A stretch of 64,000 nucleotides of DNA from an uncultured Clostridium sp. (GTDB lineage: Bacteria; Bacillota; Clostridia; TANB77; CAG-508). The notes below the pieces were generated by a model that was not told the DNA's origin, did not search any database, and saw only the letters and a list, made by a program, of their open reading frames with translations. Made by a program: the position numbers and the translations under genes. Below are positions 1,615 through 63,104 of this stretch, one piece after another. Where the stretch lies: assembly GCA_947064765.1 (NCBI GenBank), contig CAMSWH010000004.1:1782-65781 (forward strand), read 5' to 3'. Every line of letters starts with the position of its first letter. The stretch's first letter is position 1.

Positions 1615-2511
1615 TTAAAATAGTAAATTAATCATACCTAATATAAATCCAATTAATGCTCCTAAGTTTACTAAAGCATTTAGCTCTTTTTTCATGATGA
1701 ATAATATAAGTTTTTCTAGTTCTAAAATATCCATTGAATTAATTTTTTCTTTAACTATACTAGAAATATCTATAAATTTTATTATGCTTGGTAATTTCTC
1801 TATAATAAATTTTTCATAAATATTTAGTAGAATATTTGTAAGATTGATATTAGAATTATTAATTTGATTAGTAATATCAGCAATGCTAGATTTAGTTATT
1901 TTATTAACTTCTGATATTATCATTTTATTTATTAAATCTTTACCATTTAAATTAATATATTCATTTATTTTAATACTAGCAGTTTCAGAAATTGATGATA
2001 TTATAGCTTTTCCACCTAAAAGCCCAAGTACAGAGCCTTTTAATCTTTCTTTTGCAGCAATTATAATTTGATCTGCTACTACATTTCCTAAATTAGAATT
2101 TTTTATAGTTTCAAAAATACTAGAAGTTAGGTTATTTTCTATAATTTCTATGGTTTGATTATAATTATTTTCATTTATATATGAAGAAATAATTTTACAA
2201 ATAGGAGTGCTATTTTCACTAGAAGAGTTTAAAAAATTTGTAAGATTTTCTTCTATTTGTGATTTTATAGAATCTGATAATAAAGTATTTTTTAAAGTTT
2301 CTTCTGTTAATAAGTTATTACTAATAGAATCTCCAATAGCTTCCGCAAGTCTTTCTTTATTTTTTGGAATAATTCCAGGAGTAAATGGTAAAGTGAAATT
2401 TCCTATTTTTACAGGATTTAAAGGTCTAAACATCATTTTTACTGCAATCCAGTTTGTAACATATCCAATACCTGCGCCTATTAAAGGTCTAATTATAATA
2501 GAATAATTCAT
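1615..2511 (-). CDS. DUF445-family membrane protein
   Basis: N-terminal GIGYVTNWIAVKMMFRP signature and a C-terminal hydrophobic helix. Confidence 0.7.
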   Translation of the reverse strand: MNYSIIIRPLIGAGIGYVTNWIAVKMMFRPLNPVKIGNFTLPFTPGIIPKNKERLAEAIGDSISNNLLTEETLKNTLLSDSIKSQIEENLTNFLNSSSENSTPICKIISSYINENNYNQTIEIIENNLTSSIFETIKNSNLGNVVADQIIIAAKERLKGSVLGLLGGKAIISSISETASIKINEYINLNGKDLINKMIISEVNKITKSSIADITNQINNSNINLTNILLNIYEKFIIEKLPSIIKFIDISSIVKEKINSMDILELEKLILFIMKKELNALVNLGALIGFILGMINLLF

Positions 2512-8271: not shown

Positions 8272-9552
8272 ATGAGCAAAATCAGTTTAGAATTAAAACA
8301 AGGTATAAAAGCACATTTTATAAAAACAGATTTATATAAAACAGATCTTTCATGTATTATATTAACTACAACTTTAAAAAGAGATACTGTAACAAAAAAT
8401 GCATTAATACCATTTATGCTTAGAAGAGGAACAAACAGACTTCCAAATCAATATTTAATAAATAAAGAATTGGAAAATATGTATGGAGCCTCTTTTAATT
8501 GTGGTGTTGATAAAATGGGAGATAATATAGTTTTAAAATTTTATATAGAATCTATAGGTAATGAATATGCTCTAAATGGAGAAAATATTTTAAAAATGAA
8601 TATAGAAAATATTTTAGACTTAGTATTTGATCCTGTAAAAGATGGCAATAATTTAAATAAAGATTTTTTAGAGATTGAAAAAGATAATTTAAAAAAAGTT
8701 ATTGAAAGTAAGATTGATGATAAAGATTCATATGCGTTAGATAACTGTATTTCTACAATGTATGGAGATAGTGGATTTGGGCTGTATAAATATGGATATT
8801 CAGAAGATGTGGATAAAATAACAATAGAGGATATATCAGAATATTATGAATGGTTAATTCAGAATTCCAAAATAGATATATTTATATCAGGTAATATTAA
8901 TGAAGAGGATACTAAAAAGCTTTTATTAGAAAATAAAAATATAAGAAAATTAAAACCCAGAATTGAAAATTATACATTAAATAATGAATTTACAGAAAGA
9001 AAACAAATTGTGGAAAATGTTAAAGAAATTCAAGAAAATATGAATGTTACTCAAGGAAAATTAGTATTAGGATTAGATATTGTAGAAAGTATGGATAATT
9101 TGCAAGCAACTGCATTAGTATATAATGCTATTTTAGGTGATGGAGCAAATTCAATGATGTTCCAAAATGTAAGGGAAAAAGCAAGTTTAGCATATTCTGC
9201 AAAAAGCACTTTTGTAAAACAAAAATTAAATATATTTATTAGATGTGGAATACAAATTGAAAATTATGAAAAAGCATTAGATATTATAAAAGTACAACTT
9301 GAAAATATCAAAAAAGGAGAATTTACAAAAGAAGATATTGATAATGCTAAAACATATTTAATTTCTGGAATAAAAAATGTTGAAGAAGAACAAGATACAG
9401 AAGTTGTATTTTATATAGGACAAGAAATATCAAAAACTAATATTAGTTTAGAAGAATATATTAAAAGAATAGAAAAAGTATCAAAAGAAGATATATTAAA
9501 ATTAGCAAATTCTATTAATATAAATACAGTTTACTTTTTATCTTCTAAGTAA
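8272..9552 (+). CDS. M16 (pitrilysin) family protein lacking the zinc motif, probably the non-catalytic partner
   Basis: M16 fold-length protein. The position of HxxEH reads LIPFMLRRGT. Confidence 0.7.
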   Translation: MSKISLELKQGIKAHFIKTDLYKTDLSCIILTTTLKRDTVTKNALIPFMLRRGTNRLPNQYLINKELENMYGASFNCGVDKMGDNIVLKFYIESIGNEYALNGENILKMNIENILDLVFDPVKDGNNLNKDFLEIEKDNLKKVIESKIDDKDSYALDNCISTMYGDSGFGLYKYGYSEDVDKITIEDISEYYEWLIQNSKIDIFISGNINEEDTKKLLLENKNIRKLKPRIENYTLNNEFTERKQIVENVKEIQENMNVTQGKLVLGLDIVESMDNLQATALVYNAILGDGANSMMFQNVREKASLAYSAKSTFVKQKLNIFIRCGIQIENYEKALDIIKVQLENIKKGEFTKEDIDNAKTYLISGIKNVEEEQDTEVVFYIGQEISKTNISLEEYIKRIEKVSKEDILKLANSININTVYFLSSK

Positions 9553-41932: not shown

Positions 41933-43120
41933 ATGGGAATTAGAGAAAGATTAAGTGGTAATGAAGCAGCGGCTATCGCTATGAAACAAATAAATCCAGA
42001 TGTTGTTGCAGCATTTCCTATCACACCTTCAACAGAAATACCACAATACTTTTCAAGTTTTGTAAGCAATGGTCAAGTTGATACAGAATTTGTTGCTGTT
42101 GAAAGTGAACATAGTGCTATGAGTGCTTGTATTGGAGCAGAATCAGCTGGTGCTAGAGCTATGACTGCTACTTCTGCAAATGGATTATCTTTAATGTGGG
42201 AAATGGTTTATATAGCTTCAAGCTTAAGATTACCTATTGTTATGTCTCTAGTAAATAGAGCAGTTTCAGGACCTTTAAATATACACAATGATCATTCAGA
42301 TGCAATGGGAGTTAGAGATGCTGGATGGATAATGTTATTTTCAGAAAATAACCAAGAAGCTTATGATAACTTATTGATGGCACATAGAATTGCAGAACAT
42401 AAAGATGTACAATTGCCTTTAATGGTTTGTCAAGATGGATTTATCACATCACATTCTATTGAAAATATAGAATTATTAGAAGATGATAAAGCAAAAGAAT
42501 TTGTTGGAAAATATAAACCAGAGCATTATCTATTAAATGATAAGGAACCTATAGCAGTTGGTCCATTAGATGTTCAAACTTATCTTTTTGAACATAAAGT
42601 ACAACAAGCAGAAGCTATGAGAAATGCAAAAAAAGTAATTGCAGAAGTATCTAAAGAATTTGAAGAATTAACAGGACGTAAATATAAATTCTTTGAAGAA
42701 TATAAAATGGAAGATGCAGAACTTGTAGTAGTTTGCATGAATTCAACAGCAGGTACAACTAAAGCTGCTATTGATGATTTAAGAAGCAAAGGTGTAAAAG
42801 CAGGATTATTAAAAATAAGAATGTTTAGACCTTTCCCATCAGAAGAAATAGCTAAAGCTTTAAAAAATGCAAAAGCTATTGCAGTATTAGACAAAGCAGA
42901 TTCTTTAAATGGTGCAGGTGGAGCATTATATGAAGATGTTACTTCAGGTATGTTTGTAAGTAAAATAAATGTTCCAACTATAAACTATGTTTATGGAATA
43001 GGTGGTAGAGATACTACAGTTAAAGATATAGAAAAAGTATATAATGATTTAGAGGAAATAGCAAAAAGTGGAAACATTGATAATCCTTATAGATATTTAG
43101 GTGTAAGGGGGGAAATTTAA
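41933..43120 (+). CDS. porA: oxidoreductase alpha subunit
   Basis: LSGNEAAAIAMKQINPDVVAAFPITPSTEI, collinear with PorA/VorA. Confidence 0.9.
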   Translation: MGIRERLSGNEAAAIAMKQINPDVVAAFPITPSTEIPQYFSSFVSNGQVDTEFVAVESEHSAMSACIGAESAGARAMTATSANGLSLMWEMVYIASSLRLPIVMSLVNRAVSGPLNIHNDHSDAMGVRDAGWIMLFSENNQEAYDNLLMAHRIAEHKDVQLPLMVCQDGFITSHSIENIELLEDDKAKEFVGKYKPEHYLLNDKEPIAVGPLDVQTYLFEHKVQQAEAMRNAKKVIAEVSKEFEELTGRKYKFFEEYKMEDAELVVVCMNSTAGTTKAAIDDLRSKGVKAGLLKIRMFRPFPSEEIAKALKNAKAIAVLDKADSLNGAGGALYEDVTSGMFVSKINVPTINYVYGIGGRDTTVKDIEKVYNDLEEIAKSGNIDNPYRYLGVRGEI

Positions 43121-43123
43121 GTT

Positions 43124-44080
43124 ATGGCATATAATCCAAAAGAAGTAATGACAAATAGACCTTCAAGATTTACATCAGGTCATAGAATGTGTGCAGGATG
43201 TGGTGCACCAGCTGTAGCTAGAATGATTTTAAGAGCAGTAAAACCAGAAGATCATGTTGTAGTAGCAGGAGCTACAGGATGTATGGAAGTTTCTACTTTT
43301 ATTTATCCATATACAGCATGGACTGATTCATTTATTCATACAGCTTTTGAATGTGCAGGAGCCACTTTAAGCGGTGCAGAAGCTGCATATAAAGCAATGA
43401 AACGCCAAGGAAAACTATCAGAAGACAAAACAACAAAATTTATCGCATTTGGTGGAGATGGTGGAACTTATGATATAGGTCTTCAAAGTTTATCAGGAGC
43501 AATGGAAAGAGGACATGACATGGTTTATGTTTGCTATGATAATGGGGCATATATGAATACAGGTATACAACGTTCTTCAGCAACACCAAGATTTGCAGAT
43601 ACAACAACATCACCTGCAGGTACAGTTGTTCCAGGTAAAATGCAATCACGTAAAGATTTAGCAAAAATTATGGCTGGACATCATATTCCATATGTAGCAC
43701 AAACAATAGCTTTAAATAATTTTAAAGATTTATATGAAAAATCAGAAAAAGCAATTTATACAGAAGGACCATGTTTCTTAAATGTATTAGCTCCTTGTCC
43801 AAGAGGTTGGGGATATAATACAGAAGATTTAATGCAAATAAATAAATTAGCAGTTGAAACTTGTTATTGGCCTTTATATGAAGTAATTGATGGAGTTTAT
43901 AAAATTAATTATAAACCAGCTAAAAAACTTCCAATAGAAGAATTTTTAAAACCGCAAAAAAGATTTAAACATATGTTTAAACCAGGTAATGAGTGGATGA
44001 TAGAAGAATTCCAAAAAGAAGTTGATTCAAGATGGCAAGAACTTCTTGATTTAGAAGAAATTACAAATAAAGAAAATTAA
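43124..44080 (+). CDS. porB: oxidoreductase beta subunit (TPP-binding)
   Basis: CAGCG, GGDGGTYDIG and YDNGAYMNTG motifs. Confidence 0.9.
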   Translation: MAYNPKEVMTNRPSRFTSGHRMCAGCGAPAVARMILRAVKPEDHVVVAGATGCMEVSTFIYPYTAWTDSFIHTAFECAGATLSGAEAAYKAMKRQGKLSEDKTTKFIAFGGDGGTYDIGLQSLSGAMERGHDMVYVCYDNGAYMNTGIQRSSATPRFADTTTSPAGTVVPGKMQSRKDLAKIMAGHHIPYVAQTIALNNFKDLYEKSEKAIYTEGPCFLNVLAPCPRGWGYNTEDLMQINKLAVETCYWPLYEVIDGVYKINYKPAKKLPIEEFLKPQKRFKHMFKPGNEWMIEEFQKEVDSRWQELLDLEEITNKEN

Positions 44081-50889: not shown

Positions 50890-52281
50890 ATGGATAGTGT
50901 AGTGATAAAAGAATTATACAGAAATAGTGAAAAATATTTTGGAAAAGAGATAGAAGTATCAGGTTGGATAAAAACAGTTAGAGACTCAAAAACATTTGGT
51001 TTTATTGAAGTTAATGATGGATCGTTCTTTAAAAATTTACAAATTGTTTTTGATAATTCATTATCAAATTTTGATGAAATATGTAAATTAACTTTAAGTA
51101 CATCAATAACAGTTATTGGTGATTTAGTTAAAACTGAAAACGCAAAACAACCTTTTGAAGTAAAAGCAAAAGAAATAAAAGTAATAGCAATTTCTTCTCC
51201 AGAATATCCATTACAAAAGAAAAGACATACAATGGAATACTTAAGAACAATAGCACATTTACGTCCAAGAACAAATACATTTAATGCGGTATTTAGAGTA
51301 CGTTCAGTAGCATCATATGCAATACACAAATTCTTTCAAGAAAATAATTTTGTGTATGTTCATACACCAATAATTACAGGAAGTGATGCAGAAGGTGCAG
51401 GAGAAATGTTTAATTTAAACACATTTGATTTACAAAATGTGGATAAATTAGAAGATGGAACAGTTGATTTTACCAAAGACTTTTTTGGAAAACCAGCTCA
51501 TCTTACAGTTAGTGGTCAGCTTAATGTTGAAACATATGCATTTGCTTTTAGAAATGTATATACATTTGGACCAACATTTAGAGCTGAGAATTCAAATACA
51601 GTAAAACACGCAGCAGAATTTTGGATGATAGAACCAGAAATTTGTTTTGCAGATTTAAAAGATGATATGGATTTAGCAGAGAATATGCTAAAATATGTAA
51701 TAAATTATGTATTAGAAAATTGTCCAGAAGAAATGGAATTTTTCAATAATTTTATAGATAAAACATTACTTGAAAGACTTAATAACGTGGTAAATTCTGA
51801 GTTTGGAAGAATTAGCTATACAGATGCTGTAAAAGAACTTGAAAAACATAACGATAAATTTGAATATAAAGTATGTTGGGGAACAGACTTACAAACAGAA
51901 CATGAAAGGTATTTAAGTGAAGAAATATTTAAAAAACCAGTATTTGTTACAGATTATCCAGCAGAAATAAAAGCATTTTATATGAAATTAAACCCAGATG
52001 GAAAAACAGTAGCAGCAAGTGATCTTTTAGCACCAGGAATAGGTGAAATAATTGGTGGAAGCCAAAGAGAAGATAGTTTAGAAATCTTACAAAACAAGAT
52101 TAAAGATTTAAATATGGATGAAAAAGATTATTGGTGGTATTTAGATTTAAGAAGATATGGAAGTGTACCACATAGTGGATTTGGACTTGGTTTTGAAAGA
52201 CTTATGATGTATATAACAGGTATGCAGAATATACGTGATGTAATACCATTTCCTAGAACACCAAAAAATTGTGAATTTTAA
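50890..52281 (+). CDS. asnS: asparaginyl-tRNA synthetase
   Basis: Class II motifs ([22 protein letters not shown]) and an N-terminal OB fold. Confidence 0.95.
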
Positions 52282-52320
52282 AAATACATGAACTAAAGAG
52301 ATTTGAAAGGAAATACAAAA

Positions 52321-54156
52321 ATGAAAAAAGTATTATTTGATGTAGATGTATTAGATAAACATTATTGTATATATTTAGATGAAGAAACAAATAATTCATA
52401 TGCATATTCAATAAAAAAGAATGAAAAGGCATATGTAGTAAAAAAAGAAGAAGAAATAGATTTTCTTAATAAAATTGTTGAAAGTCTTAATAAAAAATAT
52501 ATAAAAAGAGAAATTATAAATTATAATGATGAATATTATTACAGATATATCAATAAATATAATCAAAAAAGTTACTTTTCTAAAATAATAAATGAGAATG
52601 AAATAGTATGTTCATATGACAGTATAAAAGAATTATATGATTATTATAATTCTCCCAAAGTATTAATGAGCAGACGTTCAAAAATAACTAAAATGAGTAA
52701 GGATAATTGGGATTACAGCAAATATAGTAGCAGTGGATATAATATGAATAATATGAACTATCACAGAAAATCGAAGTTACCAGTAAAAATAGCAGTTTGT
52801 ATTTTGGGAGTAGCAGCTACTATAACACTTGGAACAGGAGGATATCAAGTACTTTCTAAATCTGTTTTACCAAATATACTTACATCAAAAGAAGATGTAA
52901 AAGATGTAGAGTTTAAAACAGCAGACACTAAAATATCAGAAAAATATATAGAAATACAAAAACAACTTTTAGAACTTGGATTAGATAATTGGGAAATAGC
53001 AGCAGAACTTGATTCGGCATCTATAATATATGGAGAAATGAATGATATATCATTTTATTATGATGGAGATAAAGATGAAATAATATATGTAGATGGAAAT
53101 ATAGAACAAGAATTAGAAACAGATACAGAAGAAATTGAAAGGGACTCCATACCAGAAAATGTACAGCAAATTTTATCAGCACTTAACTCAAATCAAACAT
53201 TGTCTTATGAAGAAAAAGCATATATAGAGGAAAAATTTTTGCCAGATTGGATACAAAACAGTAATTATTTACAAACAGAGCAACTTGTAAATACATATTC
53301 AAGATTAAAAATGAATTATGATTATAAACCAGATGGAGAAGATATAGATGTTGATTATACTCCAAATAAAAAAGCAGCTGGTGTTGCAATAATTGGAGCA
53401 GATGAATTAACAATATATACAACAGATCATTTTGAACCGGGAAATGGAACTATTGATCATGAACTAAAGCATTTTAATGGAAATTTTGATGTTTATGAAG
53501 CAACATTATTAAATGAAGGATATACAAATTTAGATATAAATGATAATGTATATTCTCAAGAACAATTAATGGTTGGATTATTAATGGAAACTTTTGGAAT
53601 AGAATTAGTAAATGAAGGCTATTATTCTTCAAATTTAAAAGAATTAGTAGCAAACAATATAGTTGAAAAATCAGGAAAAACGCTTGAAGAAGCAACAAAA
53701 GAAACATATGATTTTTTTGATGATATAGAAAATGCTTTATATCGAACAGGAGAACTTGGAGATAATTATAGAGAAAATGCCGAATTAATGAAAGACTATC
53801 AAGATATTTTTGATAAACTTAGTGTATATTATGAAGCAAATAATAAAAAAGAAATGGGAAAAAATATCATAGTATCAATTATAAAAGATGAAATTATGGG
53901 AACAAATGATACTCAAATGCTTGGAAGTAGAGAATCTGTATCAAGTATTAGATATAGTGGAGATGGAACTCTTAAGGTAAATATAGTAAAAAATGAAGGA
54001 GATTTAGAATATACACAAGCAGGAATAGGAATTATAAGAAGTGTAGATTCTAAATATGGAAGATCAATAACTATAGGGCAAGATGAAAAATATAACAATT
54101 CTAAAAAAATATTTAGTCAAATAGAAGATGAAGATATAGAATATTCAAGTAGATAA
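52321..54156 (+). CDS. single-pass membrane protein with an extracytoplasmic HExxH motif (possible metallopeptidase)
   Basis: TM KIAVCILGVAATITLGTGGY. HELKH is encoded at 53458-53472, followed by LLNEGYT. ORF opens at 52303, and ATG 52321 is preferred as the start. Confidence 0.5.
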   Translation: MKKVLFDVDVLDKHYCIYLDEETNNSYAYSIKKNEKAYVVKKEEEIDFLNKIVESLNKKYIKREIINYNDEYYYRYINKYNQKSYFSKIINENEIVCSYDSIKELYDYYNSPKVLMSRRSKITKMSKDNWDYSKYSSSGYNMNNMNYHRKSKLPVKIAVCILGVAATITLGTGGYQVLSKSVLPNILTSKEDVKDVEFKTADTKISEKYIEIQKQLLELGLDNWEIAAELDSASIIYGEMNDISFYYDGDKDEIIYVDGNIEQELETDTEEIERDSIPENVQQILSALNSNQTLSYEEKAYIEEKFLPDWIQNSNYLQTEQLVNTYSRLKMNYDYKPDGEDIDVDYTPNKKAAGVAIIGADELTIYTTDHFEPGNGTIDHELKHFNGNFDVYEATLLNEGYTNLDINDNVYSQEQLMVGLLMETFGIELVNEGYYSSNLKELVANNIVEKSGKTLEEATKETYDFFDDIENALYRTGELGDNYRENAELMKDYQDIFDKLSVYYEANNKKEMGKNIIVSIIKDEIMGTNDTQMLGSRESVSSIRYSGDGTLKVNIVKNEGDLEYTQAGIGIIRSVDSKYGRSITIGQDEKYNNSKKIFSQIEDEDIEYSSR

Positions 54157-56044: not shown

Positions 56045-57493
56045 ATGAATGAATTAAAAAAAGCAGAAGAAAAATTTAAAAGTATTTTACGAAAATATCC
56101 AACAGATAAATTGCTAGAATATATCTCTAATAAATCTATGGAAATAGATTTAAATCAACAAGGTATTGTATTTGAAAAGAATATACTATATTCTCAATGG
56201 GAGTTAACACAATTATGTTATTATTCTATAAAATATAGTAATGATTATAGATACATGAATTCTGAAATCAATATGAATGACTTTTATAAGTTATTGAACG
56301 AAAATAAAAAGTATGATAGTTGTATGGAAAATATTAAAAATATGGATAAAATAAAAATTCTTGAACATATGCAATGTTTAACCAATGTACAATTTGATTA
56401 CCAGCAAAATAGAATAATAAGTAGATTTAACAGAATGTATAAAATTTTAATAGATATAAATCAAAATGAAGATTATATTCAAAGTACAAAAGTATATATT
56501 AATTTTGATGAAAAGTTTAAGGAAATTACTGGCATAGAAATGCTTAAATTTATAAAAATATATTTTATTATTATTTTACTTATAATATCTACAAAAAAGA
56601 ATAAAATATTAGATATATATGATATGATTAAAGAAGATATTGAAAAGATAGGGATTACGCAAAAAGAATGTCTAATGGCGATAGAATATTATAGTAAAAA
56701 ATATTCATATTTTAGAGACTGTGATAATTGGAATTCATTGAAATTTTATCCAATTGTAAAAACTGATAAAAATGAAAAATATATTTTAACTAATAAAGGA
56801 TCATTTATGATTTCTTTTCCAGATATACAATATTGGATAATAAGAAATTATTATAAAGAGAATGAAAATCGCGATTTTACAAGTTACTTTGGAGAATGTT
56901 TTGAAATCTATTTAAAAGAAGTGTTTGAATTTTATAATATTAATGCAGAAAAGTTAGAAGAAGATGGTAAGAGCAAAGTACCAGATTGGAAAATAGAAAC
57001 GAAAAAATATACAATTTTAGTTGAACAAAAAGCTACTTTATTTCCTATAGATGCTAGAGTAACAACAAGTGCGAATAGATATGATGCTATTGAAAAATAT
57101 TTTGAAAATATAAAAAAAGCTTTTAAGCAATTAAATTCTTTTGAAACTAAAGATAATGAAAAAAAAATTATAAGAATATGTTTAACATATGAAACAATCC
57201 ATATGACTGAAAATGCACAAGATATTATAAGAGAAATAATGGAATTTGATGATGAGATATATTTGAATTGGATATTAAATATTGATGAATTTGAAACTTT
57301 AATGGAACTTTTAAATGAAAGCGAAGAAAAATTTGATAATATCATTGAAAAAAAGATTGATTTAGAAAAAAAAGATAGTAATGAGGGAAAAAGTTTTGAA
57401 AGTATATTCGAGAAATTGGAAAGTAATTATGCGCGTGAAGAAATAAATTATTTTGATAATCTTATTAAAGAAATAGGAAAAGAATATTTATAG
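56045..57493 (+). CDS. hypothetical protein with a PD-(D/E)xK-like motif
   Basis: FGECFEIYL...VPDWKIETKKYTILVEQKAT (D at 56984-86, E-x-K at 57023-31). It starts 7 nt after the MBL gene. Confidence 0.5.
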   Translation: MNELKKAEEKFKSILRKYPTDKLLEYISNKSMEIDLNQQGIVFEKNILYSQWELTQLCYYSIKYSNDYRYMNSEINMNDFYKLLNENKKYDSCMENIKNMDKIKILEHMQCLTNVQFDYQQNRIISRFNRMYKILIDINQNEDYIQSTKVYINFDEKFKEITGIEMLKFIKIYFIIILLIISTKKNKILDIYDMIKEDIEKIGITQKECLMAIEYYSKKYSYFRDCDNWNSLKFYPIVKTDKNEKYILTNKGSFMISFPDIQYWIIRNYYKENENRDFTSYFGECFEIYLKEVFEFYNINAEKLEEDGKSKVPDWKIETKKYTILVEQKATLFPIDARVTTSANRYDAIEKYFENIKKAFKQLNSFETKDNEKKIIRICLTYETIHMTENAQDIIREIMEFDDEIYLNWILNIDEFETLMELLNESEEKFDNIIEKKIDLEKKDSNEGKSFESIFEKLESNYAREEINYFDNLIKEIGKEYL

Positions 57494-57570: not shown

Positions 57571-57599
57571 TTGCACATTAAAAAAATATGTGTTAAAAT
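57571..57599 (+). promoter_or_regulatory. sigma-A promoter with extended -10
   Basis: TTGCAC (57571-76), 17 nt, TG-n-TAAAAT (57591-99). Confidence 0.55.
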
Positions 57600-57623
57600 A
57601 TATAAAAATTAAATAAGAATAAA

Positions 57624-57881
57624 CCGTTGATTTAGAGTAGTAAGTATAATTGAAGAAAATAGAGAGTAATTGTTGGTGGAAATATTACATTGGAAGTTTT
57701 ACTGAATGGACTAATGAGGGCAACCCGAAATGTATAAAGTAGGCGTTGACGAGATTCTAACTCGTAAAAAGTAGACATATATGATGGTATATGAAGAAAT
57801 GAGTGGGCAATATTGTCAAATAAGGTGGCACCGCAGGAATTGTACTCCTGTCCTTAAATATTTTAAGGATAGGAGTTTTTT
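57624..57881 (+). promoter_or_regulatory. T-box leader, specifier UGG (Trp), with terminator
   Basis: Stem I GTTG/CAAC. AGUA (57636-39) lies opposite UGAA-UGG-A (57703-10). AGAGAG bulge. T-box GGTGGCACCGC (57824-34). Terminator CTCCTGTCCTTA/TAAGGATAGGAG plus TTTTTT (57845-81). Confidence 0.85.
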
Positions 57882-57970
57882 GTATGGAAAAAAAGTATTA
57901 TATGAGAAAAACAGAGAAAAATTGGTGTATGCAATTAATTTAAAAATATAATAAATTTGGAGGTACAAAA

Positions 57971-59161
57971 ATGAATGAAAATAAATTAACAAAAAAAGAA
58001 TGCGGGAGAATAGATAGTGCATTAAAACAATCAAGATTAGACTTATTTGATGTAGATGGAAATTTAAAATCAAAAGAATTAAGAGAAAAGATATGTACAT
58101 CTATGGATAGATGTACATCAGATATAAAAAGAGCTTTAGATGTATTTTTATGTTCAACAACAACAAATCCAGAATATAGAAAATTATTTAAAACAATAGA
58201 TTCTAAAGGAGTAGAAAATATTTCTGGAATATGTAGTAAATTAGAAAGAAAACCAGATGCTTTAAATGAAACTGTAATAAGAACAGTTTTTGGAGGAACA
58301 GAAAAAATGCCATTTAGAGCATTTGTATATTTATTACCAGCATTAAATATGTGTGAGGAATTATTAGAAAGTGGAAGCAATGATATTCCAAATATAGAAT
58401 ACTTTTTCATGAATGGTGCAGGGATAGTAACAAATGCACTTGATCCAGAAATAGCAAATGTAGAATCAGCAGAATTTATAAAAATTGCACAAAAATATAT
58501 TGAAGAATATCATCCAAGATTAAAAGATAAGGTAAATTTTTATACAGATTTAACATTTTCAACTGGTATAATAGGAACACCAGAATATAGACAAATGTAT
58601 GAAACATTAGAAAAAAAATTAGGATTTGAATCAGATTTAAAAACAGGTTTATTAGAAATGGGAGAAAGAAGAAAAAAAGCAGAAAATTCTATAAAATATG
58701 CAGCAATACATAGTTTTGTGCATGATGGATACATAGATTCAGAAGTTGCAAAAATGTCTAACTTTTTTGGAGAAAGTGAGCCAAAAGAATATGATACTAT
58801 TATATCTATTGGTGCAAAACCAGAAGAGAAGTTTTATAGAGCTAGAAAATTATTAGCAGAAGAAGTTAAAACAATTTCTTATTTTACACCAAAAGATACA
58901 GTTCAATATATTGCTAATATAAATGTACCACCATATTCACCACTTTCTGAAGGAGAGTTATATTTAAAAGATGTTATTAAAAATCCAAAATTGATAATGG
59001 AAGCGGTAAAAGTGTCACAAGGGGAGCATAGTGAATATCAAACTCCAGTTCAAAAAGCAGTAGAAAGCATATTAGATGATGTAGCACAAGCAGATAGTTA
59101 TAAAAGTATTATAGAGTTTATTGAAGAATATAAAAATTTAAATCAAAATAGGCAAAAGTAA
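57971..59161 (+). CDS. hypothetical soluble protein (396 aa), first gene behind the Trp T-box
   Basis: GGAGGT SD 7 nt upstream. No family recognised. Confidence 0.65.
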   Translation: MNENKLTKKECGRIDSALKQSRLDLFDVDGNLKSKELREKICTSMDRCTSDIKRALDVFLCSTTTNPEYRKLFKTIDSKGVENISGICSKLERKPDALNETVIRTVFGGTEKMPFRAFVYLLPALNMCEELLESGSNDIPNIEYFFMNGAGIVTNALDPEIANVESAEFIKIAQKYIEEYHPRLKDKVNFYTDLTFSTGIIGTPEYRQMYETLEKKLGFESDLKTGLLEMGERRKKAENSIKYAAIHSFVHDGYIDSEVAKMSNFFGESEPKEYDTIISIGAKPEEKFYRARKLLAEEVKTISYFTPKDTVQYIANINVPPYSPLSEGELYLKDVIKNPKLIMEAVKVSQGEHSEYQTPVQKAVESILDDVAQADSYKSIIEFIEEYKNLNQNRQK

Positions 59162-59196
59162 AGAATTAAGGGTAATTTTAAAAGGAGATGAATTTA

Positions 59197-60288
59197 ATGA
59201 TAGATAAATATTATAAAGAATTTAAAGTAAGAGATTATATGGATGAAGAGGGATTAAGTAATAGTTTAAGAAAAGATATTATAGATTGTTCATTAGGAAC
59301 TAATCCATTTATTGAAGAGGATTTAATAACTAAGTATTTAACAGAAAGTATATGTGAGATAAATAAATATCCATCTGTGCAGTATGAATTATTAAAAAAA
59401 GAGTTACTTAAATTTTATAAAGATGTGTTATGTGAAGGTGTAGACAAAGATAATATAGCTTTTGGAGCAGGAACAATGGGAACAATAAGAAATCTTGGAC
59501 AATTCTTAATGAGAGATGGTAAAAAGGTACTAGGATGTGCACCACAATTTCCAAGATTTATATCAGAAGTTGAATTACAAAAAGGAATATATGAGTATTA
59601 TACATTGGAAAAAAAGAATAACTATAAATTTATAACAGAAGATTTTATCAAAATGATAGATAGTAGTTATGATGTAATATCAATAGAAAATCCTAATAAT
59701 CCTACTGGTCAAGTTATAGATATTAAAAATATTGAGAAAATTGTAGCTAAAGCAAAAGAAAATAATATTATTGTTTTAATAGATGAAGCATATGGAGATT
59801 ATATGCCTAAAGGTAATTCAGCAATAACATTAGTAAATAAATATAATAATATTGTAGTTATAAGAAGTGCATCAAAGTTTTATGGATTACCAAATCATAG
59901 AGTAGGTTATATGTTTGCTGATAAAGAATTAATAAAAGTATATAATGAAATTGCAATGCCATTTCCATTTTCAGATTTATCTGCAAGTATATTTATTAAG
60001 GCTTTACAAAACGATAACAAGATAGAATATACTAAACCTATGATAGTTGAAGCAAAAGAGAGAATATGTAAAGCGATAAAAAAAGAAAACTATGTATACA
60101 CAAGTATGGATATACCGATTTTTACTATCAGATCAGATAAGTATGAAAATTTAACCCAAAAACTTATGGAAGATGGAATTATAGCTGAAAATTGTAGCTA
60201 TTTTATAAATTTAGATAGTACTTATGCAAGATTAAGAATAAATAAAGATTATGAAAAAATAATAGAAATTTTAACTAGAATACTTTAA
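59197..60288 (+). CDS. class I/II PLP aminotransferase (HisC/aromatic type)
   Basis: NPNNPTG, DEAYGDY, and the PLP lysine context RSASKFYGLPNHRVGY. ORF opens at 59188, and ATG 59197 is better spaced from the SD. Confidence 0.8.
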   Translation: MIDKYYKEFKVRDYMDEEGLSNSLRKDIIDCSLGTNPFIEEDLITKYLTESICEINKYPSVQYELLKKELLKFYKDVLCEGVDKDNIAFGAGTMGTIRNLGQFLMRDGKKVLGCAPQFPRFISEVELQKGIYEYYTLEKKNNYKFITEDFIKMIDSSYDVISIENPNNPTGQVIDIKNIEKIVAKAKENNIIVLIDEAYGDYMPKGNSAITLVNKYNNIVVIRSASKFYGLPNHRVGYMFADKELIKVYNEIAMPFPFSDLSASIFIKALQNDNKIEYTKPMIVEAKERICKAIKKENYVYTSMDIPIFTIRSDKYENLTQKLMEDGIIAENCSYFINLDSTYARLRINKDYEKIIEILTRIL

Positions 60289-60338: not shown

Positions 60339-60367
60339 TTGACATTTAAAAAAAATCATGTTACCAT
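60339..60367 (+). promoter_or_regulatory. sigma-A promoter candidate for the riboswitch transcript
   Basis: TTGACA (60339-44), 17 nt, TG-n-TACCAT (60359-67). Confidence 0.45.
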
Positions 60368-60397
60368 ATTAACAATTAAATATTTTGTCATGAAAAT

Positions 60398-60560
60398 GAT
60401 GATAGAGGTCGCGATATTTAAGAGTAAAATATATTTTAGAATTAGGCTCTTTAAATATTTGAAAGGAAATATCGCCGAAGTGGTATTTAAAGCCTAAGTA
60501 AATACTGCTGGGACATTGCAAAATATGTAATGGACTGTCACTTATGTGGAGCGCTATCTA
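60398..60560 (+). promoter_or_regulatory. lysine riboswitch (L-box)
   Basis: Conserved blocks AGAGGTCGCG (60404-13), AGAGTA, TTGAAAGG, CGCCGAAG (60473-80), CTGCTGGG, ACTGTCA (60534-40) and TGGAGCGCTATC (60547-58). Confidence 0.85.
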
Positions 60561-60620
60561 ATATACGATAAATATGTAAATAATAAGATATCTTATTATA
60601 ATAAATTTTATTGAATATTT

Positions 60621-60651
60621 GGCCATGTATGTTCCCATACATGGTCTTTTT
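60621..60651 (+). terminator. riboswitch expression-platform terminator
   Basis: GGCCATGTATG / CATACATGGTC stem followed by TTTTT. Confidence 0.8.
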
Positions 60652-60701: not shown

Positions 60702-61550
60702 ATGAACAAAAAAGTAATTATTGGAATTATTGCAATAATAGTAATTGCAATAATAGGAGTACTTTATTTTAACAATTCAAACGAAGGAGAAAAAAATGAA
60801 AGAGGAGTTTTACGTGTAGGAATGGAATGTGCATATGCACCATACAACTGGTCACAAGCAGACACATCTAATGGAGCAGTTCCTATTAAAGGGAGTGATA
60901 GCTATGCATATGGATATGATGTAATAATGGCTAAAAAATTAGCAGAATCACTTGATTTAGATTTAGAAATTTATCAAATTGATTGGGATAGCTTACCATT
61001 AGCACTTCAATCTAATACAATAGATTGTGTTATAGCAGGTCAATCTATTACATCAGAAAGATTACAGACAGTTGACTTTTCAGAACCATATTATTATGCA
61101 TCAATTGTAGCATTAACAAATTCAGATAGTATATATGCACAAGCAACAGGAATATCAGATTTAGAAGGGGCAACTTGTACATCACAAATTAATACTTGTT
61201 GGTATGATACATGTTTACCACAAATAAATAATGCCAATATACTACCAGCAATGGATACAGCACCTAATATGCTTGTAGCTTTAAATTCAAGAACAGTTGA
61301 TTTAGTAGTAACAGATATGCCAACAGCAATGGCAGCTGTAGAAGTGTATCCAAATATGAAGATTTTAAATTTTACAGATACAAAGGAAAATTTTAATGTA
61401 TCAGAAGAGGAAATTAACATAGGGATCTCTGTAAGAAAGGGAAATACTGAATTGGTAGAAAAAATAAATAACTTTTTAAAAGATTATACAGCTATAGATT
61501 TTGAAAATATGATGAATCAAGCAATAAAGGTTCAACCATTATCAGAATAA
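60702..61550 (+). CDS. amino-acid ABC transporter substrate-binding protein (family 3), membrane-anchored
   Basis: N-terminal TM segment, then LRVGMECAYAPYNW and DCVIAGQSIT blocks. Confidence 0.8.
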   Translation: MNKKVIIGIIAIIVIAIIGVLYFNNSNEGEKNERGVLRVGMECAYAPYNWSQADTSNGAVPIKGSDSYAYGYDVIMAKKLAESLDLDLEIYQIDWDSLPLALQSNTIDCVIAGQSITSERLQTVDFSEPYYYASIVALTNSDSIYAQATGISDLEGATCTSQINTCWYDTCLPQINNANILPAMDTAPNMLVALNSRTVDLVVTDMPTAMAAVEVYPNMKILNFTDTKENFNVSEEEINIGISVRKGNTELVEKINNFLKDYTAIDFENMMNQAIKVQPLSE

Positions 61551-61572
61551 TAAAAAGATAGGGGGATTTTTA

Positions 61573-62382
61573 ATGGGTAAACTACCAGAGGATTTCTTTG
61601 GAAGGATTATATTTATATTACAAAAATACGGATCCACTATGTTAAATGGAGCAAAAACTACTCTAATAATTGCAATAATAGGAACAATTATAGGTTGTTT
61701 AATTGGATTTTTTGTTGGTACTATTCAAAGTATACCAATAAATAAAAAAGATAACATTTTTAAGAAAGTATTATTAAAATTTGTAAAAATAATTTTAAAT
61801 ATCTATGTGGAAGTTTTTCGTGGTACACCAATGATGGCACAAGCAATGTTTATATTTTATGGTTCAGCTATATTATTTAATTTACATATGGATATGTGGA
61901 GTGCAGCATATTTTATAGTATCAATAAATACAGGTGCATATATGGCTGAAACTGTAAGAGGTGGAATTCTATCTATTTCAGAAGGTCAAATAGAAGGAGC
62001 AAAAGCAATTGGAATGACACATTTTCAAACAATGTTGTATGTTATAATGCCACAAGCTTTAAGAAATATAATGCCACAGATTGGTAATAATTTAATTATT
62101 AATATAAAAGATACTTGTGTACTTTCATCAATAGGAGTTGTTGAATTATTCTTTGTCACAAAAACGGTGTCAGGGGCATATTACACGGTGTTTGAAGCAT
62201 ACACAATCACAATGATAATGTATTTAACTATGACAGTATTTTTCTCAAAATTACTTAGAGTTTTTGAAAATAAATTAAATGGACCAGAAGATTATTCTCT
62301 TTTAACAACAGACACTTTAGCATATACAAGTGGAATGTTAAAATATCCTGAAAAGGAGGCAAAAGAATGGGTGAAAAAATAA
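61573..62382 (+). CDS. amino-acid ABC transporter permease (HisM/GlnP type)
   Basis: FRGTP and the EAA-like [24 protein letters not shown]. Confidence 0.85.
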
Positions 62383-63104
62383 TCAAAATAAAACATTTAA
62401 AAAAACAATTTGGAAAAAATGAAGTTTTAAAGGATATTAATTTTTCAGTAAAAAAAGGAGATGTAACTTGTATAATAGGGTCTTCTGGCTCAGGAAAATC
62501 AACACTTTTAAGATGTATAAATTTATTGGAAGAACCTTCTAGTGGAGAAATATTATATATAAATCAAAATGTATTAGATTCAAAAGATATACCAGCATAC
62601 AGAGCAAAAGTAGGAATGGTATTTCAAGGATTTAATTTATTTGATAATATGAATGTATTACAAAATTGTATGATAGGATTGACAAAGGTATTAAAAGAAG
62701 ATAAAAAACAAGCAGAAAAAGAAAGTTTATATTATTTAGAAAAAGTAGGAATGTTGCCATATATTAATGCTAAACCACGACAATTATCTGGCGGACAAAA
62801 ACAACGTGTTGCAATAGCACGAGCATTAGCAATGAAGCCAGATGTATTGTTATTTGATGAACCTACTTCTGCTTTAGATCCTCAGATGGTAAGTGAAGTT
62901 TTAAATGTAATAAAAGAACTAGCAAAAGAAGGATTTACAATGATAATAGTTACACATGAAATGGCTTTTGCAAGAGATGTTTCAAATCATGTTATATATA
63001 TGAAAGATGGTGTTATTTGTGAAGAAGGAACACCACAAGAAATATTTAATAATCCACAAAAAGAAGAAACTAAAAATTTTTTAGAAAGATTTATTAATTT
63101 ATAG
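62367..63104 (+). CDS. amino-acid ABC transporter ATPase (GlnQ type)
   Basis: Walker [10 protein letters not shown], signature LSGGQKQR, Walker [12 protein letters not shown]. Confidence 0.9.

Follow-up and report, generated by a model that had tools for sequence, protein, structure and literature searches.

A 64,000-nucleotide (nt) stretch of DNA from an uncultured Clostridium sp. (contig CAMSWH010000004.1 of assembly GCA_947064765.1, positions 1,782 to 65,781 of the forward strand; the whole stretch is referred to here as the window) carries a tryptophan-specific T-box leader followed by two genes, one encoding a 396-amino-acid (aa) protein that matches no known sequence family and the other an aminotransferase of the HisC type. 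The reading proposed for this locus, with a probability of about 0.5, is that of a tryptophan-starvation operon in which the aminotransferase salvages tryptophan and the 396-aa protein, a pseudo-tryptophanyl-tRNA synthetase (pseudo-TrpRS), works at the step where TrpRS charges tRNA-Trp. The parts of this reading differ in strength: a role in tryptophan starvation is very likely, and action of the pseudo-TrpRS at the charging step is given slightly better than even odds. The evidence comes from the leader RNA, the composition and predicted fold of the 396-aa protein, and the genes that surround its relatives in other lineages.

The leader matches the Rfam T-box model RF00230 over its full length (model positions 1-219 of 219) with 95.6 bits (E 1e-19), above the curated gathering cut-off of 93 bits, which bears out the T-box described in an earlier note on this DNA. 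In the specifier loop, AGUA (57636-39) faces U-GAA-UGG-A (57703-10), and the helix UUAG (57632-35)/CUAA (57711-14) lies just beneath the loop in both the raw sequence and the covariance-model alignment. Since GAA precedes the codon, a purine follows it and the lower helix is immediately next, the layout is canonical and the specifier is UGG, for tryptophan; the covariance-model alignment, which had been set beforehand as a check on this assignment, yields the same codon. Stem I also contains an AGAGAG bulge and the distal loop UGGUGGAAA, and all of these elements, together with the T-box sequence GGUGGCACCGC, were placed by the alignment as the earlier note had read them. The base of Stem I was not. 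It had been drawn as GTTG (57626-29) pairing with CAAC (57721-24), whereas the covariance model and RNAalifold alike form the base from CC (57624-25) and GG (57718-19), leave GUUGA as an unpaired GA/kink-turn (K-turn) motif, and assign CAAC to the 5' side of Stem II, where it pairs with GUUG (57745-48) and covaries to CAAU/AUUG in the related locus L009.

A strong terminator was located where one had been expected, with a fold of -28.2 kcal/mol (z = -3.9) that none of 200 shuffled sequences equalled in stability. Its 5' arm is also the 3' arm of the antiterminator helix in the covariance model, such that the two folds are mutually exclusive. The suggested contact between the UGGC bulge of the T-box sequence and the discriminator base G73 fits as well, since the tRNA-Trp genes that adjoin homologues of the 396-aa gene all have G73. 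Two tryptophan T-boxes in related loci (L009, 7213-7453; L010, 4461-4674) have UGGU instead of UGGC; the tRNA-Trp close by in L009 has G73, so the discriminator contact there would be a G-U wobble.

These features are retained among relatives. When the leader of the window was aligned with those of eight further loci (mean identity 82%), the motif CUGAAUGGR, including the UGG specifier, was invariant in all nine. RNAalifold predicted 69 pairs from the nine leaders, 11 of them with compensatory changes; a compensatory change from UUAG/CUAA to UCAG/CUGA was observed right below the specifier, and the terminator is conserved across the alignment, again with compensatory changes. Orthologous leaders in related loci score 88-98 bits against RF00230. 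By every sequence criterion applied, the leader is a genuine T-box, almost beyond doubt, and its assignment to tryptophan is as firm as sequence analysis permits.

Features of the tryptophan T-box operon in the window
Feature	Position	Strand	Remarks
Candidate promoter	57572-57599	+	TGCACA, 16-nt spacer, TG-extended TAAAAT; from a consensus scan; about 20 nt 5' of the leader
T-box leader RNA	57618-57858	+	Rfam RF00230; comprises Stem I (K-turn, specifier loop, AG bulge, distal loop), Stems II and III and the antiterminator
Specifier codon UGG (Trp)	57707-57709	+	GAA on the 5' side, purine A57710 on the 3' side; from the covariance-model alignment
T-box sequence GGUGGCACCGC	57824-57834	+	UGGC bulge at 57826-29
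Intrinsic terminator	57844-57882	+	15-bp stem (57844-57876) with 3-nt loop, then UUUUUU
Open reading frame of the 396-aa protein	57971-59161	+	Ribosome-binding site GGAGG 8 nt upstream
HisC-family aminotransferase, 363 aa	59197-60288	+	Frame open from 59188; SASK motif with the lysine for pyridoxal 5'-phosphate

The candidate promoter listed in the table is a weak match (9 of 12 positions) of a kind that is not enriched in the surrounding AT-rich region, and the sole argument for it is its position. A terminator scan found no intrinsic terminator between the open reading frame (ORF) of the 396-aa protein and that of the aminotransferase. The latter frame is open over 59188-60288, as previously described, and only the proposed start at 59188 was revised: the AGGAG at 59183-87 abuts that ATG and has a normal spacing to the ATG at 59197, which gives a protein of 363 aa. 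Because of this spacing, and because the homologues are 363 aa long, 59197 is the most likely start.

Both products of the operon are free of tryptophan, while the other ORFs of at least 200 aa in the window average 0.64% tryptophan. The same avoidance runs through the family of the 396-aa protein, with no tryptophan in 39 of 42 full-length close members (0.04% overall) and in 65 of 99 distant representatives (0.18% overall), and it holds down to about 25% identity. For proteins of such length, zero tryptophan would be expected by chance in about 8% of cases in the genome of the window and in about 2% at a tryptophan content of 1%. Neighbouring racemases in related loci are tryptophan-free (4 of 4), as are TrpRS proteins fused to editing domains. 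Since the two proteins contain no tryptophan, they can be made when it is missing, and a composition of this sort is the signature expected of proteins needed under tryptophan shortage. Genes of the operons that encode TrpRS-A and ORF1 in bacteria of the Candidate Phyla Radiation (CPR) are likewise tryptophan-free, and tryptophan limitation has been suggested for them by Mukai et al. 2017 (PMC5370408). The earlier note had deduced from the T-box that the pair supplies tryptophan; the near absence of tryptophan from the family independently supports a role under tryptophan limitation, and the more specific idea of a dedicated two-enzyme route from indolepyruvate fares less well, as discussed below.

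The 396-aa protein had been described as belonging to no recognisable family, and at the level of sequence this description stands. Searches of Pfam, NCBIfam (E up to 0.1), PADLOC, PHROGs and PDB sequences (phmmer and family profile) returned no match; in particular, PF00579 and TIGR00233 did not match at E up to 0.1, and an hhalign comparison of the family with a six-sequence TrpRS profile gave a probability of 0.1%. The same Pfam and NCBIfam searches agree with the earlier description of the regulated pair as a protein without a family and an aminotransferase of the HisC type that uses pyridoxal 5'-phosphate (PLP). The family is rare. Only 47 clusters in a collection of 5.8 billion proteins resemble the 396-aa protein, and a pattern-limited scan of 185,579 species genomes found the family in six, all of them metagenome-assembled genomes of uncultured Clostridium or Clostridia. 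An exhaustive profile search of 1.84 billion proteins (E up to 0.001) recovered 257 representatives of the family, and a metagenome scan with a narrower family alignment led to 8 loci. A further profile search, with the wide alignment against a word-indexed protein database and a capped number of candidates, brought up little beyond the close family. A scan for fused domains in ten relatives that are more distant or longer (up to 972 aa) gave no usable Pfam match, and the relatives P0140 and P0133 had no PDB match. A defence-system or phage origin was dropped, given that neither PADLOC nor PHROGs had a match. The isoelectric point and charge of the protein provided no useful pointer to RNA binding, and no description of the family was found in the literature searched.

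The fold, in contrast to the sequence, does not appear to be new. An AlphaFold2 model of the 396-aa protein built from the family alignment has a mean predicted local distance difference test score (pLDDT) of 90.4 and a predicted template-modelling score (pTM) of 0.91. When this model was compared with the PDB using Foldseek, the top 50 matches (E 6.5e-6 to 8e-4) were all TrpRS or tyrosyl-tRNA synthetase (TyrRS) structures except for the one ranked 14th, the designed esterase 3u1v. A second, independent model, made for a relative with 27% identity in another lineage (pLDDT 90.2), returned exclusively TrpRS and TyrRS structures among its top 50, with the same top match. In a viral structure library the best matches were, in order, TrpRS, TyrRS and then a cyclodipeptide synthase. 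According to these models, the 396-aa protein is folded like a class Ic aminoacyl-tRNA synthetase (TrpRS/TyrRS).

The motifs by which those enzymes handle ATP seem to have been replaced. At the predicted equivalent of the HIGH site (the junction of strand beta1 and the following helix) the family reads FG[GA][TS]Ex[MIL]PxR, which in the window protein is GTEKMPFR, and at the predicted equivalent of the KMSKS loop, after the last Rossmann strand, it reads [VT]PPY...GD, with NVPPYSPL in the window protein; these positions, like those of the pocket, were placed by the order of secondary-structure elements and not by superposition. No conserved histidine was found at the HIGH site, and no conserved lysine at the KMSKS site, among 50 family sequences. 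The segment AKMSNFFG (residues 260-267) was considered as a remnant of KMSKS and rejected, since it precedes strand beta4 instead of following the last Rossmann strand, and is not conserved in the wider family.

Other residues are invariant or nearly so over the same 50 sequences, which extend down to 21% identity: R104, G108, R116, D193, Y243, H247, H251, D252, G281, E285, F288, R292, Q312, P321 and Y322. The polar ones among them (R104, D193, Y243, H247, H251, D252, E285, R292, Q312 and Y322) probably sit where the amino-acid and ribose sites of a class Ic synthetase lie. Strand beta4 is preceded by a helix with the spacing Y-x3-H-x3-HD and followed by G-x3-E, and we take these to resemble, respectively, the helix that binds the amino acid and the GxDQ motif for ribose in class Ic enzymes. 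The protein is best called a pseudo-TrpRS, with a synthetase fold and, probably, a retained amino-acid/adenosine pocket, but without the ATP machinery. As the resemblance to synthetases was found in the fold and in neither sequence nor motifs, the family should be filed as a new family of synthetase-like paralogues rather than as a synthetase.

Gene neighbourhood provides the strongest functional evidence on this family. The related loci (identified here by L numbers) contain adjacent genes of the tRNA-synt_1b family, and every one that was tested scores above the TIGR00233 cut-off for trpS; the tRNA genes at these loci are all tRNA-Trp(CCA) with G73. Among Clostridial loci, the gene order is trpS, family gene, T-box, aminotransferase and trpS, with a tRNA-Trp gene nearby, in L009; family gene, T-box, aminotransferase, a 128-aa ORF, tRNA-Trp and trpS in L013; and a degenerate trpS, trpS, tRNA-Trp, family gene, T-box and aminotransferase in L014. 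In two further Clostridial loci the family gene is followed by tandem tRNA-Trp genes and then trpS, with three tRNA genes in L011 (5144-5386, +) and five in L034 (11277-11685, +), and in L019 trpS and then the family gene face a convergent aminotransferase and M20 peptidase.

Relatives of 25-35% identity, from genomes of 37-53% GC, occur in similar company. The family gene is preceded by a weak T-box-like leader and a racemase and followed by trpS in L016, lies between a racemase and a TrpRS gene with a fused YbaK-type editing domain in L020, and follows trpS and a racemase in L026. A truncated copy comes after tRNA-Trp and a racemase in L027, while in L028 trpG and a TrpR-like gene precede the family gene, which is followed by a racemase. 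A single operon in L022 (2753-8183, +) comprises tRNA-Trp, ORF1, TrpRS-A, the family gene and a YbaK::TrpRS::tRNA-binding fusion, and L023 has the same arrangement. In L031 (1149-6406, +), a 675-aa long form of the protein is accompanied by a class III aminotransferase/racemase-like gene, a YbaK-like deacylase gene that stands free, and a class I/II aminotransferase of 482 aa. The family is rare and yet present in several phyla, and its company is almost always drawn from trpS and tRNA-Trp, tryptophan regulators (a T-box or TrpR), enzymes of the racemase or aminotransferase kind, and YbaK-type domains.

The position of the T-box varies among these loci. It lies 5' of the family gene only in the clade of the window (the window and L001-L008); elsewhere the orthologous T-box begins 8-67 nt past the stop codon of the family gene and gates the aminotransferase alone. 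In L011, L022 and the variants with racemases, the family gene lacks the aminotransferase as a companion, and two aminotransferase homologues (L036 and L038) have neither the family gene nor a T-box. Because the T-box shifts in position and the aminotransferase subfamily occurs without the family gene or the T-box, the two genes are separable modules, and the constant partners of the family gene are TrpRS and tRNA-Trp. The proposal that the 396-aa protein is a partner of the aminotransferase does not hold up well against this pattern, since trpS and tRNA-Trp are its more constant neighbours and the two genes are also found apart.

Several smaller observations were made at these loci. The degenerate TrpRS paralogue of L014 (3574-4446, +) has 290 aa, internal deletions and KMSVF in place of KMSKS. 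The tandem tRNA-Trp(CCA) copies within L034 and L011 are near-identical; most bacteria probably have a single tRNA-Trp gene. A group II intron fragment (9126-9238, minus strand) lies upstream in L034, and near-threshold matches to group I introns were found in L022 (172-363) and L027 (562-753). The T-box-like leader of L016 (266-396, +) reached 34.9 bits when 1.2 kb was searched (E 8.6e-6), with a truncated Stem I, the sequence GGUGGCACCGCG and a terminator, and no specifier could be assigned to it. In the operon of L022, the ORF in the ORF1 position encodes 338 aa and no tryptophan, TrpRS-A is of the archaeal type, and the YbaK::TrpRS fusion has 641 aa. The long form in L031 owes its size to an N-terminal extension of about 290 aa that contains no recognisable domain. 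A DUF3800-I RNA (66 bits) at 1965-2094 (+) in L010 overlaps the end of an opposite-strand DUF3800 gene by 7 nt.

The second gene of the operon encodes a fold-type I PLP enzyme, matching PF00155 with 153 bits (cut-off 19.7; E 1.4e-44). Against TIGR01141 (hisC) it scores 188.4 bits, which is under the equivalog cut-off of 276.55, so that by sequence it is a member of the HisC family and not a HisC equivalog. Among family models hisC and CobD are nearest to it, and in the PDB the best matches are to HisC enzymes (E 6e-23). The subfamily contains more than 120 clusters at 53% identity or above. Its likeness to the histidinol-phosphate/aromatic aminotransferases of the HisC family consists of PF00155, the SxSK motif with the PLP lysine, and the best matches just named; its differences are the score below the cut-off, the absence of a his operon and the control by a tryptophan T-box at these loci. 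Action of this enzyme on indole-3-pyruvate remains plausible.

From these observations a sequence of events can be proposed. When tRNA-Trp is mostly uncharged, its CCA anticodon would pair with UGG in the specifier loop, as in the established T-box mechanism, and its free G73-C74-C75-A76 end would pair with UGGC and stabilise the antiterminator, so that RNA polymerase would read through into both genes. Charged Trp-tRNA would be unable to stabilise the antiterminator, and transcription would end at the terminator. The aminotransferase, once made, may convert indole-3-pyruvate to L-tryptophan with glutamate as the amino donor. The pseudo-TrpRS presumably does not adenylate tryptophan, because its ATP motifs are absent, and presumably works at charging, because of its context of trpS, tRNA-Trp and editing domains. 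It may bind tryptophan or the Trp-A76 end of tRNA-Trp and serve as an auxiliary or quality-control partner of TrpRS while tryptophan is scarce and salvaged from indolepyruvate or D-tryptophan. The recurrence of racemases, aminotransferases and YbaK-type domains suggests that tryptophan is drawn in these organisms from pools of D-tryptophan and keto acids, with a risk of mischarging.

Several points weigh against this reading. No trpS and no tRNA gene is present in the 64-kb window, and in its clade neither trpS nor a tRNA-Trp gene lies within about 10 kb of the operon, so the link to trpS is taken from other lineages. The TM-scores to TrpRS and TyrRS structures are just 0.35-0.5, and the assignment of conserved residues to the amino-acid and ribose sites of a synthetase is a prediction from the order of secondary-structure elements rather than from superposition. 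Furthermore, the conserved aspartate, histidine, glutamate and tyrosine residues suggest catalysis, for which a purely auxiliary subunit would have no need. The aminotransferase scores below the HisC cut-off, its one apparent tryptophan-specific mark is the T-box, and close homologues of it exist without a T-box. Finally, the counts of tryptophan depletion come from related sequences that are not phylogenetically independent.

Some of the same evidence can be arranged differently. The 396-aa protein could be an enzyme of metabolism, or a partner that the aminotransferase cannot do without, and act on free metabolites such as indole-3-pyruvate or indole-lactate in a two-step salvage of tryptophan. 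Both genes follow one tryptophan T-box in the clade of the window and are predicted to be co-transcribed, the two are counted for this purpose as adjacent in all Clostridial loci, other phyla pair the family with racemases or with class III and class I/II aminotransferases (all of them alpha-carbon enzymes), and the pocket residues look catalytic. Such a role is nevertheless unlikely. Loci L011/L034 and L022 have trpS and tRNA-Trp but show neither an aminotransferase nor a racemase, homologues of the aminotransferase with 59-70% identity lack the partner gene, and it is hard to see one family feeding both a cofactor-independent racemase and a PLP transaminase, while the recurring tRNA genes and YbaK-type domains indicate aminoacyl-tRNA as the object. 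A dedicated two-enzyme route from indolepyruvate is less likely than two separate starvation functions because the genes are separable and trpS and tRNA-Trp are the constant partners. If the object is aminoacyl-tRNA, the protein might instead be a trans-acting deacylase built on a synthetase core, hydrolysing tRNA-Trp mischarged with D-tryptophan or an analogue, an error that would be frequent when L-tryptophan is scarce and the cell is using D-tryptophan or keto-acid pools. TrpRS accepts D-tryptophan, and the frequent racemases, the YbaK-type domains in three contexts (fused to TrpRS or free-standing), which show that tRNA-Trp editing is important there, the apparent retention of amino-acid and ribose sites in a protein predicted to have lost the ATP motifs, and the conserved histidine, aspartate, glutamate and tyrosine, which could support hydrolysis, are all consistent with this. 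The additional YbaK domains would then be redundant, however, the Clostridial loci have an L-specific fold-type I aminotransferase and no racemase, and we know of no precedent for a homologue of a synthetase catalytic core acting as a dedicated deacylase; this possibility is accordingly rated as quite improbable.

Chemistry on the tRNA has also to be weighed. With a logic like that of SepRS/SepCysS, an unorthodox synthetase could load a precursor onto tRNA-Trp that the racemase or PLP enzyme subsequently converts there. The tRNA-Trp arrays adjoining the family gene, the regular association with fold-type I PLP enzymes or racemases and the editing domains nearby would suit such a route, and the ester would ease alpha-carbon chemistry relative to the free amino acid, yet the protein has no HIGH, KMSKS or any other recognisable nucleotide-binding motif, direct charging is available from the canonical trpS that is usually adjacent, and the aminotransferase subfamily also occurs alone, all of which leaves only a slim likelihood. 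A broader form of this idea, hardly more probable, is that the 396-aa protein may found a new family of enzymes derived from aminoacyl-tRNA synthetases, in which a precursor on tRNA-Trp (D-tryptophan or an acyl group derived from indolepyruvate) is converted to L-Trp-tRNA by the racemase or PLP enzyme encoded nearby, or that it is a new proofreading factor; in its milder form, the protein may be a factor on a synthetase core that proofreads tRNA-Trp for chirality or analogues. Cyclodipeptide synthases offer another model, being known class Ic-fold enzymes that lack HIGH and KMSKS and bind aminoacyl-tRNA, and a protein of their kind could use Trp-tRNA-Trp as the aminoacyl donor for a small tryptophan product. 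A viral cyclodipeptide synthase is the sixth-best match in the viral structure library (E 1.7e-3), and none is among the top 50 PDB matches of either model. A G-x-[ST] motif follows beta1 as in those enzymes, whereas no Pfam cyclodipeptide-synthase match was found and full-length TrpRS and TyrRS structures score better. Moreover, the position of the nucleophile (110) is occupied in the 50 sequences by T (30), S (16), V (2), Q (1) and A (1), the members with valine retain the tRNA-Trp/trpS context, and the loci contain no tailoring enzymes or exporters. Physiologically it would make no sense to switch on an enzyme that uses up Trp-tRNA just when little tRNA-Trp is charged, or to free its sequence of tryptophan, and this model is very improbable. 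Least probable of all is a protein that protects the cell, as a decoy or otherwise, from TrpRS inhibitors (indolmycin-like compounds or tryptamine) that mimic starvation and switch on the T-box. It would draw on the predicted TrpRS-like pocket without catalytic motifs and on the additional trpS copies near several loci, and for other amino acids there are known cases of resistant synthetase copies under T-box control; resistance by a stoichiometric decoy would be inefficient, though, the racemase, aminotransferase, TrpR and trpG neighbours suit nutrition more than resistance, and no biosynthetic cluster or efflux gene is associated with these loci.

Set beside known systems, the riboswitch of the starvation operon is an ordinary member of its family and the cargo is what is unusual. 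With other tryptophan T-boxes (e.g., those of trpS and of the anti-TRAP operon rtpA-ycbK in B. subtilis) the leader shares the K-turn, the GAA-codon-purine order, the AG bulge, the distal loop, Stems II and III, the 14-nt T-box with its UGGN bulge and the competing terminator and antiterminator. Its genes are not trpS, tryptophan biosynthesis, a transporter or anti-TRAP but a pseudo-synthetase and a HisC-like aminotransferase, and in sister clades the same leader lies inside the operon, between both genes. With TrpRS and TyrRS (PF00579) the 396-aa protein shares most of its predicted structure, from the Rossmann core and an insertion resembling CP1 to a helical domain at the C terminus, in addition to the genomic link to tRNA-Trp and trpS; it differs in having no detectable sequence similarity even in profile-profile comparison, in the replacement of HIGH and KMSKS, and in a shorter C-terminal domain. 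The cyclodipeptide synthases are likewise Rossmann proteins of class Ic derivation in which the aminoacyl pocket survives although both ATP motifs are gone, with weak structural similarity to the window protein, which is about 150 residues longer, has N- and C-terminal helical domains, and lacks their invariant serine nucleophile, a Pfam match and a biosynthetic context; its regulation and tryptophan-free composition indicate tryptophan starvation instead. HisZ and the HisRS-like domain of GCN2 embody the same concept, a synthetase paralogue that does not aminoacylate and supplies or senses its amino acid; unlike the 396-aa protein, with its predicted class Ic fold, they have a class II fold and known partners.

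In genomic context, the nearest parallel comes from CPR bacteria and DPANN archaea. Their ORF1 and TrpRS-A-like proteins are class I-like, occur in tRNA-Trp/TrpRS operons that are sometimes headed by trpR, and were proposed as partners of TrpRS by Mukai et al. 2017 (PMC5370408). Loci L022 and L023 hold ORF1, TrpRS-A and a member of the 396-aa family together. Identity of the family with ORF1 of Mukai et al. 2017 was considered and rejected, given an hhalign probability of 0.7% against the gene in the ORF1 position of L022 and no match to the family hidden Markov model, and the family is not described in sections 3.3 and 4 of that paper (PMC5370408).

Sequence alone seldom reveals what an unknown gene does, and a T-box specifier is one of the few features that give such a clue. 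Here the UGG codon leads to a protein family that is unmatched in Pfam, NCBIfam, PADLOC, PHROGs and PDB sequences, and to which structure prediction adds a TrpRS/TyrRS fold. New biology has come from each of the synthetase paralogues that lost aminoacylation (HisZ, cyclodipeptide synthases, YadB and PoxA), and the 396-aa family, which ranges over gut Clostridia, CPR bacteria and other lineages, is a candidate for such a paralogue in the tryptophan system. Should it change the charging or proofreading of tRNA-Trp during starvation, this would bear on how auxotrophic gut and groundwater bacteria survive tryptophan scarcity and on D-tryptophan and indolepyruvate as sources of tryptophan. A tRNA-linked salvage of tryptophan, if real, would be a new tRNA-dependent amino-acid route beside the Asn, Gln, Cys and Sec pathways. 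The finding also touches the unexplained TrpRS-A/ORF1 operons described in 2017.

The remainder of the window offers some context for the operon. Upstream of the T-box, ORFs of 617 aa (52303-54156, +) and 482 aa (56045-57493, +) have no match in Pfam, PADLOC or PHROGs and are kept in position in L001-L004; the former comes after an AsnRS-like gene (50890-52281). Downstream lies a lysine riboswitch (60395-60564, +; 110 bits), and apart from it and the T-box no RNA family exceeds its cut-off anywhere in the window. It belongs to a separate operon that comes immediately after the aminotransferase, with a promoter-like TTGACA at 60339 and a terminator at 60621-60646, and the ORFs that follow it (60702-63104) encode an amino-acid ABC transporter (binding protein, permease and ATPase). 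At 41933-44080 (+), 14 kb from the T-box, ORFs encode both subunits, alpha and beta, of an enzyme that could bear on keto-acid metabolism, a 2-oxoacid:ferredoxin oxidoreductase (POR_N/PFOR_II and TPP_enzyme_C).

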